This document shows positions 4,207-50,436 of a DNA stretch of 64,000 bases, piece after piece. Each line of letters opens with the position of its first letter. Position 1 is the stretch's first letter. The translations under genes and the position numbers were made by a program. The notes under the pieces were generated by a model. It saw only the letters and a list, made by a program, of their open reading frames with translations, searched no databases and had not been told where the DNA came from. Source of the stretch: Candidatus Woesearchaeota archaeon (GTDB lineage Archaea; Nanobdellota; Nanobdellia; Woesearchaeales; UBA10216); assembly GCA_016184345.1 (NCBI GenBank), contig JACPCV010000005.1:97017-161016 (forward strand), read 5' to 3'.

Positions 4207-5370
4207 ATGAAAAAAACACTCATTCGCAACAAAAGAGGAATTTTCTTCACGTCAATAGCCATACTAATCTCAGCGGTGCTCGTGCTTACATTTGGCACGC
4301 CGGCCAGCGTAACGACAAAGGAGCAAATCCCGCTGACACAGGCAAAAGCAGACATGGCAAATGCGCAGGCGCGCGACCTCAAATACAGCTACCTGCCCCA
4401 GTCACTTTACGTCTCAACCTACAGCGCCCTCTACGCCATGTCAGAGTACATGCGGCTAAGGGGCGGCTACTTCCAGGGAGCTGATGCCGACCAGAAATTC
4501 AACGCAACGCTGAAAGAGGTTATGATTAACGGCACCATATGCTGCGGCCTGGCAGGCCACCTTCCCCCATGCGATTCTGATTCCCTGGCTGACGTGAATA
4601 ACCCAGCCATCCATAAAGGGGCTGATGACTGCCTCGGCAAAGCCATAATGAAAGACAGGAACTTCACCAAGCGGCTTAAGGACATGGAAAACGCTTCCTT
4701 CACTGCCTTCAGGATAAACACGACGTTCAACAAGGACTATAATAACATGGTAATCCAGCTGTTCCAGGACAACCAGACCGGGCCCTGGCAAATCGGCGTT
4801 AACATAAGCGTGAACTACTCAATAACAGCCGGTGATGTCATGATAAACAACTCTGAAAACGTAAGCGTCATATTCGGCATAGAGGGAATACCAGACCCGC
4901 TGTACGCAGTGCAAAGCCAGCAAACGCCCCAGGACGGCAGTATTACGTACACCAACTACTTTAACGCCACGAACATTACAAACTGGAACATATCAGCGTT
5001 CTACCACGAGATAGAGTGGCGCCTCTACAGGCACGAGCCAAACGGCTCAAGCTTCCTCAACAGGTTCTACGGAAGGGATGAGCGCTCGCCATGCTGCGGC
5101 GTTGAGAGCCTGATAAACCCAGCGGACATGGGCACGGTCAACGGGGCATTGGAGAAGCCGTACGTTGACTGGTGCTACTACGGCAGAAACAACCGCTGCA
5201 CCACAGCCCAGACAGGAGCCATGTGGAACGTCACATGCGTCACGGCAGCCGTTGACGGCGAAAAGTTCTTCAAATACGCCATTGACACGTTCCACGCAAC
5301 GCAGTACAACATAACCAATTACCTATATGACCTGCCCCCATCGACATGCCCAGAGATACCTTTCCCGTGA
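4207..5370 (+). CDS. Large secreted/anchored pilus-cluster protein, Cys-rich, many N-glycosylation sequons
   Basis: N-terminus MKKTLIRNKRG|IFFTSIAILISAVLVLTF. More than 15 NxS/T sequons (for example NATNITNWNIS). Multiple Cys pairs. Confidence 0.65.
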   Translation: MKKTLIRNKRGIFFTSIAILISAVLVLTFGTPASVTTKEQIPLTQAKADMANAQARDLKYSYLPQSLYVSTYSALYAMSEYMRLRGGYFQGADADQKFNATLKEVMINGTICCGLAGHLPPCDSDSLADVNNPAIHKGADDCLGKAIMKDRNFTKRLKDMENASFTAFRINTTFNKDYNNMVIQLFQDNQTGPWQIGVNISVNYSITAGDVMINNSENVSVIFGIEGIPDPLYAVQSQQTPQDGSITYTNYFNATNITNWNISAFYHEIEWRLYRHEPNGSSFLNRFYGRDERSPCCGVESLINPADMGTVNGALEKPYVDWCYYGRNNRCTTAQTGAMWNVTCVTAAVDGEKFFKYAIDTFHATQYNITNYLYDLPPSTCPEIPFP

Positions 5371-5378
5371 CACTCTTT

Positions 5379-5476
5379 GGGAAAGAGGTTCAATCCAGAA
5401 AACGAAAGCTTTTTGATTAACCTTTCCCAAATCGTGCAAACGCACGATTGGGCCCAGTCGCTGGAGGCGACTTGGG
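5379..5476. repeat. Composite hairpin element (long hairpin plus twin bulged hairpins)
   Basis: Hairpin gggaaagaggttcaatc..gattaacctttccc (5379-5428). Twin hairpins cccaaatcg..cgattggg (5426-5452) and cccagtcgc..gcgacttggg (5453-5476). Same modules as the proS insert at 34257-34345. Confidence 0.85.
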
Positions 5477-5492
5477 TTCTTAAAAAGGTTAA

Positions 5493-10987: not shown

Positions 10988-11001
10988 ATGAACAGACATT
11001 A

Positions 11002-11115
11002 AAACGCCCCCACTGGGAATCCGCGCCCTGATGGGCTTGGAACCCAGTGGATGGATGGCTAAACGCCCCCACTGGGTGACTTCGCCTTTCGGCTCAGGAC
11101 CCATTGGTGGCTAAA
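11002..11115 (-). repeat. Two extra tandem copies of the tRNA-Arg 3' end (T-stem plus acceptor plus trailer)
   Basis: aaacgcccccactggg occurs at 11002-11017, 11061-11076 and 11113-11128; the last copy belongs to the tRNA at 11116-11248. Copies 2 and 3 have T-stem-like helices closing non-tRNA loops. Confidence 0.8.
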
Positions 11116-11248
11116 CGCCCCCACTGGGAATTGAACCCAGATCTCAGCCTGCCTGCTGACGGATACTCGCCGTCGTTTTTGGGTTGAACCTTTTTCGCAA
11201 AAAAGGGTCATTCGCGGGGCCGCATCTTGTCCGTTGGACCATAGGGGC
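11116..11248 (-). tRNA. tRNA-Arg (GCG, tentative) with a ~61-nt anticodon-loop intron
   Basis: Acceptor GCCCCTA/TGGGGGC. Anticodon stem CGGCC/GGCTG with loop CCGCGAA (C33 is atypical). Intron about 11150-11210, starting TGACCCTTTTTT. T-arm CTGGG-TTCAATT-CCCAG. Confidence 0.65.
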
Positions 11249-11340: not shown

Positions 11341-11368
11341 CGAACGCATTGTGTTGAAGGGGCGTTTA

Positions 11369-11469
11369 AATATAGAGGACTTTGAATAACCCCTATTTAT
11401 CACTTTTGTTCAAAGTCCTCTAAGACAACTTTGACACTTTACAGATAGATAATCAAAGTTGTCTATATT
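11369..11469. repeat. ~100-bp double-hairpin repeat 'X', copy 1
   Basis: Near-identical to the reverse complement of 30779-30920, except for a 43-nt insertion in that copy and a different second loop. Stems are agaggactttgaa/ttcaaagtcctct and agacaactttga/tcaaagttgtct. Confidence 0.9.
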
Positions 11470-12278: not shown

Positions 12279-13253
12279 GCCGATAAAAAGGAAAGGCAGG
12301 AACTTTATACCGCCCTTGATGCTTCCCTTGCTTATCAGGGAAACTATCATGCTTGCAAACAGGGAAAGGACCATGAGGGAGTATCTTGAGAAGTCCCTGA
12401 ACGTTTCAGGAGCTATTGAGGCGTTGCCGAAATGGATGGGCAGGCCGGCAGCAGCGCTTTCTGCGCCTGACGCGCTTATCCTCTCCCCAAGGCCCTGAAG
12501 TATGGTAAGGAACTGGAACGAAAGCGTAAAAAGGCCTGGTGCAACAACCATGACGATTACAATGACGAAGATGACGTAAGACAGGTTGGTCGCGGCCATC
12601 TCGGACTTCAGCTCCTTCGTTTCCTCTATTGTGTCAATTACCCGGTCAATGACGTCAGCAGTCCTGCCGCCTCCCTTCATGCCTTCAAGGATAAGGTCAA
12701 ACGACCTTCTCAGCATTGGCGAGTCATACTTGCCCGTGAACTCAGAGATTGCAATGTCGACATCGGCTCCGGTCATGACCTTCTTTGCAGCGAGCCTGAC
12801 TTCCTGGCCCAGTATCCCGAACTCAGGCTTGATTGCGCTCCACAGAGACTTCTCGAACGGCATGCCGCCCTTAAGGTTTTCAGACACCAGGCGCAAAAAG
12901 TCAGGAAGCACTGCCTCCATCTTCTTTGTCCTGTTGAAAATCCTGAGGTCAAGGTACAGGTAGATTGCAATAAAGATTCCTGCCAGCACAGCGCCGTGCA
13001 CGATTGTCCAGGCTATTATCGCAAACAAAAACTGGATTGCCGGATTTGAGGTTTTCTCAACTATCACCCTCCAGATAGTGAACATGAAAATGTAAGCTAC
13101 AGGGATTATGCTGAGCCAGAAGAACAGGCCCATGTAGCCGTAAGGCACTTCAGCAATCCCGCTCTTTGCCAGGTAGCCCCTTAGCTTTGGCCTGAAGCGC
13201 TCAAAGATGAACGCCTTTCCAACGCCCTCAAACAATTCGCCGCTGAACCCCAT
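12213..13253 (-). CDS. Type IV pilus platform protein, T2SS-F/TadC/EpdK-like
   Basis: 346 aa. TM segments flank a cytoplasmic T2SS-F-like domain (LRLVSENLKGGMPFEKSLW...LILEGMKGGG). In an operon with the ATPase. Confidence 0.7.
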   Translation of the reverse strand: MGFSGELFEGVGKAFIFERFRPKLRGYLAKSGIAEVPYGYMGLFFWLSIIPVAYIFMFTIWRVIVEKTSNPAIQFLFAIIAWTIVHGAVLAGIFIAIYLYLDLRIFNRTKKMEAVLPDFLRLVSENLKGGMPFEKSLWSAIKPEFGILGQEVRLAAKKVMTGADVDIAISEFTGKYDSPMLRRSFDLILEGMKGGGRTADVIDRVIDTIEETKELKSEMAATNLSYVIFVIVIVMVVAPGLFTLSFQFLTILQGLGERISASGAESAAAGLPIHFGNASIAPETFRDFSRYSLMVLSLFASMIVSLISKGSIKGGIKFLPFLFIGSQVVYFVAMKIGTSVFSGFFA

Positions 13254-25464: not shown

Positions 25465-25611
25465 GGGCCCATAGTTCAGCTTGGCTAGAACGCCGCACAA
25501 CCTTTTTCACAAAAAGGTTGATCAAAAACCTTGGAAAAGGTTGGGCGAGTCTGATATTCGGTTAGCGAATCAGTCAGGCGGAGGTCCTCGGTTCAAGTCC
25601 GAGTGGGCCCA
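25465..25611 (+). tRNA. tRNA-Ile (GAT, tentative) with two introns
   Basis: Acceptor GGGCCCA/TGGGCCC, D-arm GTTC..GAAC, T-arm CTCGG-TTCAAGT-CCGAG. The anticodon arm reconstructs as CCGC[53 nt, 25497-25549]T-CTGATA[19 nt, 25557-25575]A-GGCGG. Confidence 0.6.
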
Positions 25612-30497: not shown

Positions 30498-30709
30498 CGA
30501 GCCCGCCGGGACTTCCTCACTGGCGTTCGGGGCATAAATCGCTGATGCGATTGTGCCCAGTCGGTTTTGCACCGACTTGGGCATTGCCGCCTCGGGCGCC
30601 AATATTTGAACCCAGATCAATCGGTTGCTTCTTCTTCGTTTTTGATTGGCCTTTTTCCTAAAAAGGTCATCCGAAGCCGATCGCACTGTCCGGATTGTGC
30701 TACAGGCCC
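30498..30709 (-). tRNA. tRNA-Arg (TCG) with a 45-nt anticodon-loop intron and a 93-nt T-loop insertion
   Basis: Acceptor GGGCCTG/CGGGCTC (two G-U pairs), D-arm GCAC..GTGC. Anticodon arm ATCGG-CTTCGGA[30625-30669]-CCGAT. T-arm CTGGG-TTCAAAT[30511-30603]CCCGG. Confidence 0.7.
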
Positions 30710-30778
30710 ACGCCCTTGACTAATCCCGACCACTATTTAAAGCTATTTTTATGCTCCGCTCCGGGCTAATGAAAAAGA

Positions 30779-30920
30779 ATATAGACAACTTTGATTATCC
30801 CATAGTTATTTGTCAAAGTTGCCTCAGCGTATCGCTGAGGGATGTCAGCTATCAGCTGACATTGTCTTAGAGGACTTTGAACAAAAGTGATAAATAGGGG
30901 TTATTCAAAGTCCTCTATAT
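30779..30920. repeat. Double-hairpin repeat 'X', copy 2 (inverted), carrying a 40-nt twin-hairpin insertion with TTG duplication
   Basis: Reverse complement of 11369-11469. The extra segment at 30822-30864 is cctcagcg-tat-cgctgagg ga tgtcagct-atc-agctgaca, flanked by ttg at 30819-30821 and 30862-30864. Confidence 0.9.
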
Positions 30921-30943
30921 AAAAACAGCCAAAGAGTTGCCTT

Positions 30944-32749: not shown

Positions 32750-32820
32750 TAAAAAAGCTGATGTGCCCCGGCTAAATATAAACTTTTTCGTTGCCGCAGC
32801 GTAAATGCGACTTGGGAAAC

Positions 32821-32859: not shown

Positions 32860-34407
32860 ATGTCTGATGGCAAAAACAAAAAGGCCGCTGCAGCAGCCGA
32901 AGACAAAAAGACAATCGGGCTTACCGTAAAGAAATCCGAGGACTTCTCAGAGTGGTACACACAGGTAATCGCCAAGGCAGAGCTTGCAGACTACACGAAA
33001 GTGTCAGGATGCCTGGTGCTCAGGCCTTACGCATACGCAATCTGGGAAAAGATAGTCAAAGAGGTTGATGCAAGGCTCAAGAAGATGAGGGTGCAGAACT
33101 GCTACTTCCCGCTGCTCATACCCGAGAGCCTGCTCAAGAAGGAGGAGCAGCACATCCAGGGATTCGCGCCCGAAGTTGCCTGGGTAACCCATGCAAGCGA
33201 CACCAAGCTTGATGAGCGGCTCGCAGTAAGGCCTACTTCCGAGACAATAATGTACGATTCTGTCTCAAAATGGGTAAGGAGCTGGAGGGATTTGCCTCTC
33301 AAGCTTAACCAGTGGAACAACGTTGTACGGTGGGAGTTCAAGCACCCCACGCCCTTCATAAGGACAAGAGAATTCCTCTGGAACGAAGGACACACTGCCT
33401 TTGCCACAAAAGAAGAGGCAGAGGCCGAGATAGGGGAGATACTGTCGCTATGGAAGGATATCACTGAAAATTTCCTTGCAGTTGCCGGAATTACAGGGCA
33501 AAAAAGCCAGTCCGAGAAGTTTGCCGGCGCAGTTGCCAGCTACAGCATAGAATTCTTCCTCCCAAACGGCAGGGCAGCGCAGGGGCCTGACGCACACTTT
33601 GACGGCCAGAACTTTGCCAAGGCGTTTGACATCACATTCCTGAACGAGAAAGGCGAAAAGGATTATGTCTGGCAGAACACGTGGGCAATAACCACAAGGA
33701 TGATTGGCATACTGGCAATGGTGCACGGCGACGACAAAGGCTTGGTTATCCCGCCAAACATAGCGCCTGTACAAATAGTTATTGTCCCGATATTGTTTGA
33801 AGACTCCAAAAAGGAAGTCCTGGCAGCTGCAAACAAGATAAGAAAAGAGCTGGAGAAAGAAAGCATAGCTGCCGAAGTTGACGGCCGCGAGACTTACACT
33901 GCCGGCTGGAAGTTCAACGAGTGGGAGCTTAAGGGCGTCCCAGTCAGGATAGAAATTGGACCTAGAGACATGCAGCAGAAGCAGGCCATCATCGTAAGGA
34001 GAGACACATCAGCGAAGGAAACCGTCAAGCTGGAAGCTGTTGCAGCTGCCGCAAGGAAAACGCTTGCCGAAATCCAGGAGTCACTCTACCAAAAGTCAAA
34101 GCAGCAGCTTGAAAACAGCATTGTGGCTGCCAAAAACATTGGTGAAATCGCCACTGCAGTGAAAAGCAAGAAGCTCGCAAAAGCAGATTTCTGCGGCTCA
34201 GCAAAGTGCGAGGCAGAAGTCAAGGAAAAAGCGGACGGAGCAACCTCAAGGTGCATGACCCTTTTAGAACCCAAATCGACAGAAGCCGATTGGGCCCAGT
34301 CGTCGCAACGACTTGGGAAAGGGTCAATCCAAAAACGCGAACAAATGGGCAAATGCGTTGTGTGCGGAAAAGAAGGAGTTGCGAGCTGGTTTGGGAAGGC
34401 GTACTGA
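32860..34407 (+). CDS. proS: Prolyl-tRNA synthetase, archaeal type, with an in-frame repeat-derived insertion near the C-terminus
   Basis: FSEWYTQVI, RPTSETIMY, WNNVVRWE (class II motifs), and the C-terminal ..CVVCGKEG..WFGKAY end. Extra residues TLLEPKSTEADWAQSSQRLGKGS.. are encoded by the element at 34257-34325. Confidence 0.9.
   Translation: MSDGKNKKAAAAAEDKKTIGLTVKKSEDFSEWYTQVIAKAELADYTKVSGCLVLRPYAYAIWEKIVKEVDARLKKMRVQNCYFPLLIPESLLKKEEQHIQGFAPEVAWVTHASDTKLDERLAVRPTSETIMYDSVSKWVRSWRDLPLKLNQWNNVVRWEFKHPTPFIRTREFLWNEGHTAFATKEEAEAEIGEILSLWKDITENFLAVAGITGQKSQSEKFAGAVASYSIEFFLPNGRAAQGPDAHFDGQNFAKAFDITFLNEKGEKDYVWQNTWAITTRMIGILAMVHGDDKGLVIPPNIAPVQIVIVPILFEDSKKEVLAAANKIRKELEKESIAAEVDGRETYTAGWKFNEWELKGVPVRIEIGPRDMQQKQAIIVRRDTSAKETVKLEAVAAAARKTLAEIQESLYQKSKQQLENSIVAAKNIGEIATAVKSKKLAKADFCGSAKCEAEVKEKADGATSRCMTLLEPKSTEADWAQSSQRLGKGSIQKREQMGKCVVCGKEGVASWFGKAY
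34257..34345 (+). repeat. Structured element inside proS: 8-bp outer stem enclosing twin bulged hairpins, followed by an AATCCAAAAACG tail
   Basis: gacccttt (34257-34264) pairs with aaagggtc (34318-34325). Inner hairpins are cccaaatcg/cgattggg and cccagtcg/cgacttggg. The core is 69 nt, or 23 codons. Related to tRNA intron modules and to 5379-5476. Confidence 0.85.
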
Positions 34408-34409
34408 CA

Positions 34410-34544
34410 ATGCTTAATGACCAAGATTTTATTGTGAAAGCGCGACTTAAGGAAATAAAGGTCAATCCTTTAATTGGAAGATCGGAAAAAGAACTTGACG
34501 CTTACCTTGCAAAAAGAGGAGTAAAAGTTGTTCAGAATATTTAA
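34410..34544 (+). CDS. Small putative antitoxin (44 aa)
   Basis: MLNDQDFIVKARLKEIK.... Overlaps the start of the RelE-like gene by 17 nt. Confidence 0.4.
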   Translation: MLNDQDFIVKARLKEIKVNPLIGRSEKELDAYLAKRGVKVVQNI

Positions 34545-34857
34545 GTCGGCAACGTTTGATAAGGACTTCGATAAGCTTGATAATTCAGAGCAGAAGCGGG
34601 TAGATAAGATTCTGAATCAATTGCTGGAGCGCGGCGGCGAAGTTGGAAAGCCGCTTTCAGGATTACCTTTCTTTAAAGAAAAGAAGTTTGACGGGAAAAG
34701 GCTTTATTTCCTTGTTTATGAAAACCTTCATGTTGTTCTTGTTCTTGCAATAAGCGACAAAAAAGCGCAGCAAACTACTATTAATTTAATTCTGCGTGAC
34801 TTGGCACAATATCAGCAATACGTTCTTGCCGAACTTAAAAAGAAAGCAGTTACTTAA
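34528..34857 (+). CDS. relE: RelE/ParE-superfamily toxin-like protein
   Basis: TTG start. FDKDFDKLDNSEQKRVDKILNQL...GKPLSG...KFDGKRLYFLVYENLHVVLVLAISDKK is typical of a RelE-like addiction-module toxin. Confidence 0.55.
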   Translation: MFRIFKSATFDKDFDKLDNSEQKRVDKILNQLLERGGEVGKPLSGLPFFKEKKFDGKRLYFLVYENLHVVLVLAISDKKAQQTTINLILRDLAQYQQYVLAELKKKAVT

Positions 34858-35008
34858 ATTGTTTAGGCTTCCACTCGCTTATTCTGCCGTGCTTAACGTC
34901 TTCCAGGCTTCTGCGGATTTTTTCCACCAGTTCGTAATCTATTTCAGCCTCTTGTGCCTTCCTCTTAAGAGTCTCGTACTCTTCTTTTGAGATAGTTACT
35001 GTTTCCAT
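34850..35008 (-). CDS. Small ORF (52 aa), antitoxin-like; not in the supplied ORF track
   Basis: METVTISKEEYETLKRKAQEAEIDYELVEKIRRSLEDVKHGRISEWKPKQFK. Convergent with the RelE-like gene, overlapping its end by 8 nt. Confidence 0.35.
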   Translation of the reverse strand: METVTISKEEYETLKRKAQEAEIDYELVEKIRRSLEDVKHGRISEWKPKQFK

Positions 35009-35057
35009 TTCAGTTTAACGCTATTCAGAGTTTATACTATTTAAATTTTCCGCCTTT

Positions 35058-35108
35058 ATCGTGTGCGGCAAGGAAGGAACGGTTGCGTGGTTTGGAAAAG
35101 CTTACTAG
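35058..35108 (+). repeat. Displaced copy 2 of the proS 3' end
   Basis: Translates as IVCGKEGTVAWFGKAY*, against CVVCGKEGVASWFGKAY* in proS. The nt sequence has diverged mainly at synonymous positions. Confidence 0.85.
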
Positions 35109-35109
35109 C

Positions 35110-35409
35110 TTACTTTAGCATTCGTAGTTCTTTCTCTAAATCCTCTATTGAGTAGCTGGACCTGTAGCCGTTATCGACTAAGTACTGTTCCATCTCCCAA
35201 ATTGTGAGCTCTGCTTTGCGTGCCGCTTCTGAAATGCTTATCTTGCCCTTCATGTACTCGCCTGCAGCCTTTTTTTCCAACAGGGCTTTAAGTCCTATTG
35301 TAACCGCCTTCCTGATTATCGTGCTTCTATCCTCCAGTTCTGATTTTCCCAAGTACTCTGCCTTTTTTAGAATATCATCCGATAGCCTCACTCCCACCGC
35401 TGCTGTCAT
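35110..35409 (-). CDS. RHH/UPF0175-like antitoxin
   Basis: VRLSDDILKKAEYL...RSTIIRKAV (ribbon-helix-helix-like) followed by ISISEAARKAELTIWEMEQYL (UPF0175-like). Overlaps the upstream PIN-like gene by 4 nt. Confidence 0.5.
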   Translation of the reverse strand: MTAAVGVRLSDDILKKAEYLGKSELEDRSTIIRKAVTIGLKALLEKKAAGEYMKGKISISEAARKAELTIWEMEQYLVDNGYRSSYSIEDLEKELRMLK

Positions 35410-35906
35410 TTTGTGCCCTCCATTAAAGCCTTATCAAGTATAGCATCCCCGAACCAGCCAATCTTCCTCAATTCTGTGATGGATTCCTTAAACTTCATAT
35501 AGTCAATAAGCTTTGCAAGCTTTAGCCTGAGCACAATTGCCAACGTTCCAATCGTTCTTACGTCAATTAAAACCGCTTTCTTCCTTACATTGTCATCGTC
35601 GGTTGCCAGCATTTCTGCTTTTTCCTGCCAGTAGAGTGCAACTGCTTCAGCTTCCCCGCCTTTGATGTTAAACTCATTTGCCTTTTTAACCAAAGTAGCA
35701 TCCTTGACGCGTACAACCCTTAGTTTGCGCTCATTAACCAGATTCTCAACAACCCTCGCATCAGCATACCCTTTGCTTAAGCCTTCCATAACCTCTTCAT
35801 ACACCAGTCTTGGAGTGATAACTTCCTTAAAGTAACCACAGCTTTTCTCCAAAAGTGATATCTTGGCCAGATGGATTAAAACCATTGCATCCTTGACAAT
35901 CAACAT
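35406..35906 (-). CDS. PIN-like (DUF3368-type) toxin
   Basis: ATG at 35906, with tatttaaat 25-33 nt upstream. MLIVKDAMVLIHLAKISLL...LATDDDNVRKKA.... Confidence 0.5.
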   Translation of the reverse strand: MLIVKDAMVLIHLAKISLLEKSCGYFKEVITPRLVYEEVMEGLSKGYADARVVENLVNERKLRVVRVKDATLVKKANEFNIKGGEAEAVALYWQEKAEMLATDDDNVRKKAVLIDVRTIGTLAIVLRLKLAKLIDYMKFKESITELRKIGWFGDAILDKALMEGTK

Positions 35907-35977
35907 TTGTAATACAATGTGCACATTGTATATTTAAATGTTTCTGTTTCACTCAAAAATACAGAAACCCAGAAAAA

Positions 35978-36037
35978 GGCGGCTGTGCTGTGTGTGGCAA
36001 GGAAGAAATAGTTACGTGGTTCGGGAAGGCGTATTGA
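35978..36037 (+). repeat. Displaced copy 3 of the proS 3' end
   Basis: Translates as GGCAVCGKEEIVTWFGKAY*. Confidence 0.85.
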
Positions 36038-44012: not shown

Positions 44013-44684
44013 ATGGTTACTGTTGACGAGCTCAAGAAGCTAAGCCCTGAAGAAAGAATCAAGCGGCTGAAAGAGCTTGAGGAGGAGCGCAAGAAGGAGA
44101 TAGCAGAAGCGGAAGAGCTAATCAAGGAAACAGCAAAGGAGCTTGCCGAAGCCGAGGAAAAAAGGAGGATACCGATTCCAGAGGCAAGGGCAACCGACCT
44201 GTCCACGCTTGACACGCTTGAGGAAAAACAGCTCGTCGCAACACACCACCTCCTTGCAGCGGAAACAACAGCAACCCACCAGCCGCAAAGCCCGCAGCAG
44301 CCAAAAAGCCTGGAGGAAGTCGCAGCAGAGGAAGCGCCTGCAGCAGGCCAACAAACGCAGCATGACCTTTTAGGAAAAGGTCAATCAAAATTACAAAAGC
44401 CCGAATACGCCATAGGCACGGAGCAACAGAGGCCAGCGTTCGGGGAATACCTTTCAAAATCGCAGCAGACAGTAACAGGAGGAACTCCCCCGGGCAGCAG
44501 CGAGCTGGAAAAGATTACGGAAATTTACAAGGACAGGGCAGTAACCGGAGCCGAGACAGGAGATGCCCAGCAAAAATACTTTGGCACGCAACAGCACGTA
44601 ACCGGAGGATATGAGCTGAGGAAAAGAGAGGAAGAGGACAGAAGGGAAAGAACAGAGTACAGAAGAAGGGGAGGGCCTGCTTAA
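44013..44684 (+). CDS. Uncharacterised 223-aa coiled-coil/low-complexity protein (operon gene 2)
   Basis: The N-terminus ELKKLSPEERIKRLKELEEERKKEIAEAEELIKE is coiled-coil, followed by a Q/T/E-rich tail. Its stop abuts the ATG of gene 3. Confidence 0.55.
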   Translation: MVTVDELKKLSPEERIKRLKELEEERKKEIAEAEELIKETAKELAEAEEKRRIPIPEARATDLSTLDTLEEKQLVATHHLLAAETTATHQPQSPQQPKSLEEVAAEEAPAAGQQTQHDLLGKGQSKLQKPEYAIGTEQQRPAFGEYLSKSQQTVTGGTPPGSSELEKITEIYKDRAVTGAETGDAQQKYFGTQQHVTGGYELRKREEEDRRERTEYRRRGGPA

Positions 44685-50314: not shown

Positions 50315-50436
50315 CGGGCCCACAGGGACTTTCAAGCCTTTTTGGTTGAGCTTTTTGTGCGCTCACAAAAAGGTCATTTGAACCCTGGACCTGTTCGTTA
50401 AGAGCGAACCGCTCTACCAGGCTAAGCTATGGGCCC
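50315..50436 (-). tRNA. tRNA-Lys (CTT) with a 48-nt insertion in the T-loop
   Basis: GGGCCCA-TA-GCTT..GAGC-G-GTTCG-CTCTTAA-CGAAC-AGGTC-CAGGG-TTCAAAT[50328-50375]CCCTG-TGGGCCC-G. Confidence 0.8.

Follow-up and report, generated by a model that had tools for sequence, protein, structure and literature searches.

The prolyl-tRNA synthetase gene (proS) of a Candidatus Woesearchaeota archaeon (assembly GCA_016184345.1, contig JACPCV010000005.1) carries an in-frame, stop-free net insertion of 66 nt that is built from two palindromic repeats, one nested in the other. It was studied within the window, by which we mean the whole 64,000-nt stretch of that contig between positions 97,017 and 161,016. 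Our preferred interpretation, to which we assign a probability of about 0.7, is that the insert is an archaeal counterpart of the Rickettsia palindromic elements (RPEs), a set of nested selfish repeats lodged in a permissive linker of prolyl-tRNA synthetase (ProRS) and read through by the ribosome. A preliminary description of this DNA had placed two readings side by side: a palindromic element that colonized a coding region in frame, as RPEs do, and an intron in proS mRNA that the tRNA splicing endonuclease would cut out. The first is well supported by the multi-copy nature of the repeats, their lack at orthologous sites and their presence in frame in unrelated enzymes, whereas for the second no bulge-helix-bulge (BHB) motif exceeding the background was found at the insert boundaries.

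Results

The proS insert and its boundaries

The segment was established as an insertion by aligning 16 ProRS C-termini and 30 close homologues, together with DNA alignments, an orthologue comparison that the preliminary description had proposed. Both protein alignments place a window-specific segment between RCM(T/N)L and GKCxxCG; the insert is missing from about 40 aligned orthologues (47-82% identical), and the 30-homologue alignment shows all relatives of 68-82% identity to be without the 22-residue segment. Altogether about 8000 ProRS homologues were found, the top non-self matches being Woesearchaeota ProRS sequences of 75-82% identity, and the top genome match, among species representatives that exclude the window's own genome, was a groundwater Candidatus Woesearchaeota metagenome-assembled genome with 75% ProRS identity. 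Insert-free DNA reads TGC ATG ACC (C/A)Tx, three variable codons and GAx AAG AAA GGC; the window instead reads TGC ATG ACC CTT, followed by TTA GAA, 48 nt and AAA GGG TCA ATC CAA AAA CGC, and then GAA CAA ATG GGC. The net gain is 22 codons (ProRS residues 469-490), rather than the roughly 29 extra residues first proposed, as RCM-T-L are native residues preceding the insert and E-Q-M, ahead of GKC, is probably native too. Peptide strings derived from the insert include STEADWAQSSQR and GSIQK.

The stem and hairpins within proS lie exactly where they had been drawn (Table 1). A perfect 8-bp outer stem (gacccttt, 34257-34264, paired with aaagggtc, 34318-34325) encloses two singly bulged hairpins, and the 69-nt core (34257-34325), folded alone, reproduces the three-way junction proposed for it at -29.6 kcal/mol, compared with -16.4 ± 2.9 kcal/mol for shuffled sequences (z = -4.62; 0/200 shuffles equal). 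The core had also been described as 23 codons without a stop: it is indeed stop-free, but it is out of register with the codons, as it starts on position 3 of the Met codon. In the outer stem, the 5' arm ATGACCCTT is itself native proS coding sequence, for which insert-free orthologues have TGCATGACC(A/C)T, TGCATGAACCTT or similar at the positions equivalent to 34253-34263. The other coding or open-frame module copies that we saw likewise start (G)CATGRCC, and this stretch may represent a microhomology or a target site for the module.

An AlphaFold2 model of ProRS, computed from a 60-sequence alignment, has a mean predicted local distance difference test score (pLDDT) of 85.7, with residues 472-493 below 50. 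The 10-residue blocks flanking blocks 471-500 average 87 and 96, and the strands on either side of the low-scoring stretch, like the C-terminal zinc domain, are predicted with confidence. On this model the insert looks like an exposed, disordered excursion that is compatible with the ProRS fold. Searching positions 34150-34450 against Rfam 15 returned no matching family up to E = 10, and in the whole window only tRNA-Arg(CCG) attained the Rfam gathering score. Two further ideas about the structure were rejected: a K-turn or C/D box reading of ATGA... (by eye, no D box and unmatched geometry) and a tRNA-like anticodon mimic regulating ProRS (the loops hold no Pro anticodon).

Table 1. Coordinates of proS, its insert, related repeats and tRNA-gene features in the window.
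Feature	Position	Strand	Remarks
proS, archaeal-type prolyl-tRNA synthetase, 515 aa, host of the insert	32860..34407	+	Pfam tRNA-synt_2b, HGTP_anticodon, ProRS-C_1
Native proS stretch GCATGACCCTT (C-M-T-L), doubling as module 5' end and 5' arm	34253..34263	+	From orthologue comparison
proS module copy	34257-34337	+	
Module 5' arm GACCCTTTT and loop AGAA	34257..34269	+	Pairs with 34318-34325
48-nt twin-hairpin repeat nested in module loop	34270..34317	+	No counterpart in the otherwise identical L081 proS module
Twin hairpin, hairpin 1	34270-34294	+	Arms cccaaatcg/cgattggg; one bulged base
Twin hairpin, hairpin 2	34295-34317	+	Arms cccagtcg/cgacttggg; one bulged base
Module 3' arm AAAGGGTC and tail AATCCAAAAACG	34318..34337	+	Matches tRNA-intron module tails; identical in L081 proS, including all third codon positions
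Module-like hairpin and tail, CTCTTT-GGG-AAAGAG-GTTCAATCCAGAAAAC	5371..5403	+	Directly 3' of the stop codon of open reading frame (ORF) 4207-5370
Intergenic composite copy (module with nested twin hairpin)	5409..5490	-	Hairpin G-C and A-T pairs swapped relative to proS
Bare in-frame module in ORF 44013-44684, encoding DLLGKGQSK	44364..44390	+	Patchy among orthologues
tRNA-Arg(GCG) intron, module at start	11151..11211	-	
tRNA-Ile(GAT) intron at 30/31, module at start	25497..25549	+	Second, canonical intron at 25557-25575
tRNA-Arg(TCG) T-loop insertion, 93 nt	30511..30603	-	Diverged twin hairpin at 30533-30581
tRNA-Arg(TCG) intron at 37/38, module at start	30626..30670	-	BHB: H CTTC/GAAG, h 4/4
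tRNA-Lys(CTT) T-loop intron, module at start	50329..50376	-	BHB: H TTCA/TGAA 4/4, h 4/4, h' 3/4; spliced product canonical

A composite insert at a site occupied twice

The proS insert is, by comparison with a second carrier, a composite of a palindromic module and a 48-nt twin hairpin nested in the module loop. The second carrier, P0022 (GCA_016180065.1, locus L081), is 65% identical to the window's ProRS by BLASTP and 67% identical over shared alignment columns, and carries 8 extra residues at this site, encoded by GCCCCTTT-AGAA-AAAGGGCC-AATCCAAAAACG, a bare module without the twin hairpin. The window proS has the same module with the twin hairpin added directly after AGAA. A neighbor-joining tree groups P0022 with P0023 (83% identical) and the window's ProRS with P0003 and P0006, all three of them module-less; as the module is missing from the nearest relatives of both carriers, the same proS site has gained it twice, in two lineages. 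A 10-nt direct repeat in L081, ATGAGCAKGG, was considered as a target-site duplication and rejected because it is incompatible with the 24-nt net insertion there.

The arm and loop at 34257-34269 recur identically in the L081 proS module and in the tRNA-Arg(TCG) intron of L083, and the window proS module as a whole is nearly identical to that L083 intron module (GACCCTTTT-AGAA-AAAGGGTC-GATCCAAAAC). In each carrier, the 5'-arm variant of the proS module is also that of the resident tRNA-Arg(TCG) intron, namely ATGACC for the window and TGGCC for L081. The tRNA-Arg(TCG) gene lies a few kb upstream of proS in these genomes, at ~2.2-2.6 kb in the window and L081. The source of the proS module may have been a module in one of the tRNA introns of its own genome.

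Two repeat families in the window and its relatives

The module, roughly 30 nt long, consists of a hairpin of a T-run and an A-run followed by an AAYCCAAAAAC tail. Seven copies are present in the window, six full ones retrieved with a regular expression and the in-frame copy at 44364-44390; module-tail matches number 4, compared with 0.21 expected. Among the related loci, a module abuts the 3' end of a tRNA in L001 and the 5' end of a tRNA in L091 and L098. Tandem arrays of module variants with the tail AATCGGAAAAC (..CCCCTTTGCGAAAGCGGTCAATCGGAAAAC..) and a period of ~40 nt, some units of which hold a twin hairpin, occur at ~2480-2620 of L092 and around the twin hairpins of L111, L126 and L130.

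The copy in ORF 44013-44684 lies in a protein family (P0121-P0163) in which HDLLGKGQSK or NLF(G/A/D)EKGLSK variants are present in frame in 9/43 aligned members, the other 34 having neither. The product is a conserved Woesearchaeota protein without a Pfam match, with a coiled-coil-like N-terminus and the modules placed in a Q-rich linker.

The twin hairpin was found at 44 metagenome loci, all from groundwater-type assemblies, which represent 27 unique sequences; viral contigs searched with the same pattern gave 0 matches. Its recurrence in the window had been noticed in the T-loop insertion of tRNA-Arg(TCG) and near 5426-5476, and both sites were confirmed, the core being present with one mismatch at 30548-30563 and exactly at 5445-5460 (8 matches on both strands, compared with 0.33 expected). 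The four stem arms are invariant but for a single pair, which is always G-C or A-T and is Watson-Crick in all 27 unique elements. Loops vary between copies yet lengthen the stem in 44/46 cases, by a mean of 1.8 extra pairs compared with 0.51 after shuffling. About half of the copies sit inside a module, where the point of entry varies between the loop, AAAAA^GGTC and GACC^TTTTT, and the remainder lie in unrelated flanks; both orientations occur. Larger variants have two further conserved hairpins (CAAATCG..CGATTG and GCGCATTCCGC..GCGGAATTGCGC) inside hairpin 2; these were seen at L104 526-640 and in L110, L112/L124 and L125, and one resides within the very long tRNA-Arg(TCG) intron of L085.

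The Hainich groundwater metagenome locus L105, whose ProRS N-terminus is 92% identical to that of the window, has a full twin hairpin upstream of proS (L105 391-439), where the window spacer keeps only the last arm as a 9-nt remnant, CGACTTGGG, at 32808-32816. Such elements are gained and lost over short time scales.

Both families also enter other protein-coding genes. A PfkB kinase has an in-frame twin-hairpin insert of 25 residues relative to PDB 3kd6, with the module in the same frame as in proS (MTLLGK...GSIQ), and the twin hairpin, with or without the module, is likewise in frame in a carbamoyltransferase and in a metallo-β-lactamase-fold protein. The kinase insert is located at L122 2420-2520 and that of the carbamoyltransferase at L090 1598-1645. 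The unique twin copies whose length is not divisible by 3 sit, six out of six, between ORFs. A search for genes broken by out-of-frame elements returned two candidates only, both of which were plainly separate genes.

tRNA genes, their introns and the shared module

The window contains at least five tRNA genes (Arg CCG, Arg GCG, Ile, Arg TCG and Lys), four of them with one or two introns. Default ARAGORN and Rfam each report one tRNA in the 64 kb, whereas ARAGORN run with introns permitted reports three, one with its intron mis-set. The module had been placed in the introns of tRNA-Lys, Arg(TCG), Arg(GCG) and Ile; the regular expression finds it in all four, and the intron coordinates originally given were right to 1 nt. 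Removal of the deduced introns in silico yields canonical 75-nt tRNAs. The module begins at the 5' splice site or within 1 nt of it, and supplies only the 5' part of each intron; the 3' part, complementary to the upstream exon, makes the BHB. At the splice sites the bulges are 3 nt long, the central helix H is Watson-Crick at 4/4 pairs (3/4 in Arg(GCG)), and every tRNA intron scored has a flanking helix of 4 bp apart from the second Ile intron, which was scored on the unspliced precursor.

Orthologous module-bearing introns of tRNA-Arg(TCG) are present in L001 and L081-L085. The 93-nt T-loop insertion of the same gene is found solely in the window and L121, the T-arm being intact in L001 and L081-L084; its BHB is relaxed (H 3/4, h 4/4), with bulges as in the Lys T-loop intron.

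A tRNA-Arg 3' end, comprising the 3' strands of the T-stem and the acceptor (CCCAGTGGGGGCG), is present three times in the minus-strand sense, at 10992-11017, 11051-11076 and 11103-11128, between tRNA-Arg(GCG) and tRNA-Arg(CCG), and one extra copy resembles a T-arm with a small insertion of its own. These copies could be integration scars, alternative 3' exons or pseudo-fragments. An inverted repeat of 65 nt (97% complementary) with an adjoining 50 nt (80%) links 11364-11469 to 30778-30926, beside the tRNA-Arg(GCG) and tRNA-Arg(TCG) genes, 19 kb apart.

Other repeats and neighboring genes

The 39 window ORFs that were scanned against Pfam are mostly housekeeping genes (Kae1, GyrB, class I LysRS, SRP54, S3Ae and others) or have no Pfam match. 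The 3' end of proS (~65 nt, encoding ..CGKEG..WFGKAY*), at 34343-34407, is repeated at 35044-35108 and 35973-36037, with a counterpart in L085 at 12535-12609. The cassettes between the copies comprise two unannotated ORFs (34528-35008) and a toxin-antitoxin pair of UPF0175 and a PIN-like DUF3368 protein (35110-35924). Compared with L001, copy 1 matches over its proximal half and copy 3 over its distal half, the pattern that serial site-specific integration with a crossover near GGCAARGAAGG would leave. Gene content directly after proS differs in every relative, and no integrase was seen. Direct repeats of 129 nt (92% identical; 1-129 and 2002-2130) and 109 nt (74%; 363-471 and 2418-2526), with about 2 kb between copies, suggest that small genes without a Pfam match were duplicated in tandem where the window begins.

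Discussion

The module and the twin hairpin in proS are small, non-autonomous palindromic repeats, and the insert was assembled in two steps. A ~30-nt module entered the stretch of ProRS coding for a short, variable, hydrophilic linker in the C-terminal domain that joins the RCM(T)L strand to the GKCxxCG zinc knuckle, its entry point being the native GCATGACC, which resembles the 5' end of the module itself. A 48-nt twin-hairpin repeat then landed inside the module loop. Because the two sum to 66 nt without a stop codon, proS stays open. The mRNA would be read through, and we infer that the insert is translated, so that ProRS would bear an extra surface loop of 22 residues, probably disordered, which would be useless to the enzyme and persist since the loop tolerates it. 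The two families occur in tRNA introns, tRNA flanks, spacers and permissive protein loops, places at which RNA processing or a lack of constraint would render them harmless.

The features by which RPEs are recognized are present here, namely a multi-copy family at non-homologous loci, a stable hairpin fold, in-frame and stop-free copies in unrelated genes that are missing from orthologues, and a site predicted to be compatible with the fold. Of those that strictly define a miniature inverted-repeat transposable element (MITE), namely terminal inverted repeats, a target-site duplication and a cognate transposase, the inverted termini are present but not the full set. Several observations count against this interpretation. 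The Pfam scan of the 39 window ORFs found no transposase or integrase domain, and hence no mobilizing enzyme, and comparison of filled with bare modules revealed no target-site duplication. The length of 20/27 unique twin elements is divisible by 3 (48 or 51 nt) whatever their location, and the in-frame coding copies are only moderate to weak evidence because the twin family itself is biased to these lengths. The proS module matches sequences that are excised as parts of tRNA introns, starting right at their 5' splice sites. The strict stems and covarying loops show selection on a folded nucleic acid, which a purely selfish translated element leaves unexplained. Finally, the third codon positions of the module are identical between the window and L081 at 9/9 sites, compared with 59% in the rest of proS, which points to recent copying or to constraint at the level of nucleotides rather than of protein.

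In a BHB, a 4-bp helix between two 3-nt bulges, with at least one flanking helix, spans both splice sites. The BHB-bounded introns of cbf5 in Crenarchaeota are cut by the tRNA splicing endonuclease (PMC2738675), and the proS insert resembles them in being an extra segment, similar to tRNA-intron sequence, in an archaeal housekeeping gene. A corresponding intron in proS pre-mRNA, excised by that endonuclease and joined by RtcB, would agree with the module forming the 5' portion of four genuine tRNA introns here, where it starts no more than 1 nt away from the 5' splice site, with the relaxed substrates linked to DPANN endonucleases that have the L3 loop (PMC5829648) and with the orthologue-like linker length that removal of 66-69 nt would leave. 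We nevertheless consider it very unlikely. Unlike cbf5, proS has no BHB at its insert and the reading frame is left open: for 5' sites at 34245-34275 and 3' sites at 34310-34352 the best score is 9/12, equaled or bettered by 96% of random window regions, and a strict scan gave no candidate at the insert in either the window or L081 proS. No in-frame candidate combines a 4-bp Watson-Crick central helix with a 4-bp flank, unlike most of the tRNA introns scored, and proS lacks the exon-complementary 3' segment that all the tRNA introns have. Cuts at the outer stem, or analogous to those in the tRNAs, would remove either 76 nt, shifting the frame, or 78 nt, joining RC to KREQMGKC and leaving a 5-residue linker, below the 8-10 residues of all orthologues. 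The module, the twin hairpin and the 6-nt difference from L081 all keep the frame, which is unneeded for an intron, and no out-of-frame coding copies were found.

Removal could in principle proceed without a BHB, through structure-directed cutting and ligation of the mRNA triggered by the paired inverted arms, in an archaeal analogue of the RTCB-dependent SOS splicing of animals. RtcB-type ligation is the normal route of archaeal tRNA splicing and counts for this possibility, as do the perfect 8-bp outer stem and the conserved, covarying hairpins, which would make a suitable signal. The principle exists in SOS splicing, which removes DNA transposons from mRNAs with AKAP17A and CAAP1 (PMC12779559); there too inverted-repeat elements lie in coding sequence, and in both settings the paired arms could mark an RTCB-dependent excision. 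That system, however, is known only from animals, excision of the proS insert is hypothetical, and every coding copy keeps the frame, lacks a stop codon and leaves its gene unbroken, the pattern that is expected without removal, so that we regard this route as very doubtful. Excision of the proS insert at the RNA level, by a relaxed endonuclease and by an SOS-splicing-like route considered jointly, is unlikely. It is also quite unlikely, in our judgment, that the module and twin hairpin are general substrates of an archaeal RNA-structure-directed excision (by the splicing endonuclease or another nuclease, with RtcB) acting on any transcript, proS mRNA included. If true, one set of mobile units would both give rise to new tRNA introns and be tolerated within protein genes, and the archaea would have their own equivalent of SOS splicing and a present-day case of introns originating from mobile DNA.

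A function of its own at this site, either as an att-like recombination site for the cassettes behind proS or as an RNA signal regulating ProRS synthesis, is given little credence. The last 65 nt of proS are twice repeated downstream, each time after a small cassette, L085 shows the like with a Fic cassette, the insert ends 18 nt upstream of that repeat, and hairpins with extrahelical bases resemble attC sites and the ends of IS200/IS605. These features are uncoupled, however: L085 has the cassette and duplicate without the module and L081 has the module without the duplicate, an independence that makes the att-site role unlikely. The homology of the downstream copies begins inside or after the CxxC codons, not at the module, and the same repeats occur in dozens of unrelated contexts; a regulatory signal is opposed by the lack of a loop mimicking the tRNA-Pro anticodon and of an Rfam match. 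As for a native, lineage-specific ProRS loop with hairpins that arose by chance, the RCxxx-GxCxxC linker does vary in length among ProRS, but this explanation is refuted by the relatives of 68-82% identity, all without the segment, by the fold (z = -4.6) and by the exact membership of both parts in repeat families, and retains virtually no probability.

Interpreted as a translated palindromic element, the insert is closest to the RPEs, which are in-frame, MITE-like palindromic repeats (PMC10969869). Shared with them are multi-copy palindromes with stable hairpins that occupy unrelated housekeeping genes without a frameshift or stop codon, have no counterpart in the orthologues, and are located at sites the fold tolerates. 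The differences are that the host is a DPANN archaeon, that the units are ~30 nt and 48-52 nt long compared with ~100-150 nt for RPEs, and that they nest in each other, form the 5' part of tRNA introns and abut tRNA ends. Fujishima et al. reportedly described, in 2010, the transposition of tRNA introns in Thermoproteales, work that is cited in PMC4090602 and PMC4033280. As in that case, near-identical intron sequence across tRNA genes and positions of one genome implies copying; the difference is that the shared unit here is an intron module only, and that it also occurs outside tRNA genes, including in coding sequence. REP/RAYT repeats, the palindromes derived from IS200/IS605 and attC sites are hairpins with conserved stems, extrahelical bases, variable loops and no target-site duplication, all of which they have in common with the twin hairpin. 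The latter differs in its two-fold symmetry, as it is composed of two adjacent, mutually inverted hairpins rather than one attC stem, and the scanned ORFs of the window yielded no HUH transposase or integrase.

In Rickettsia, palindromic repeats inserted in frame are a textbook curiosity. Our literature searches returned no archaeal counterpart, and the phenomenon thus appears to extend to DPANN archaea: in a groundwater Woesearchaeota-like clade, in-frame palindromic repeats recur in several genes. There are practical consequences, as gene callers silently take such inserts as protein sequence and standard tRNA finders recover just 1 to 3 of the 5 tRNA genes identified in the window. These small units are at once the 5' portions of tRNA introns, neighbors of tRNA ends and inserts in protein genes, and one is carried by the lineage-specific T-loop insertion of tRNA-Arg(TCG). 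The system therefore bears on the origin of the non-canonical tRNA introns of archaea and on their possible movement as DNA elements.

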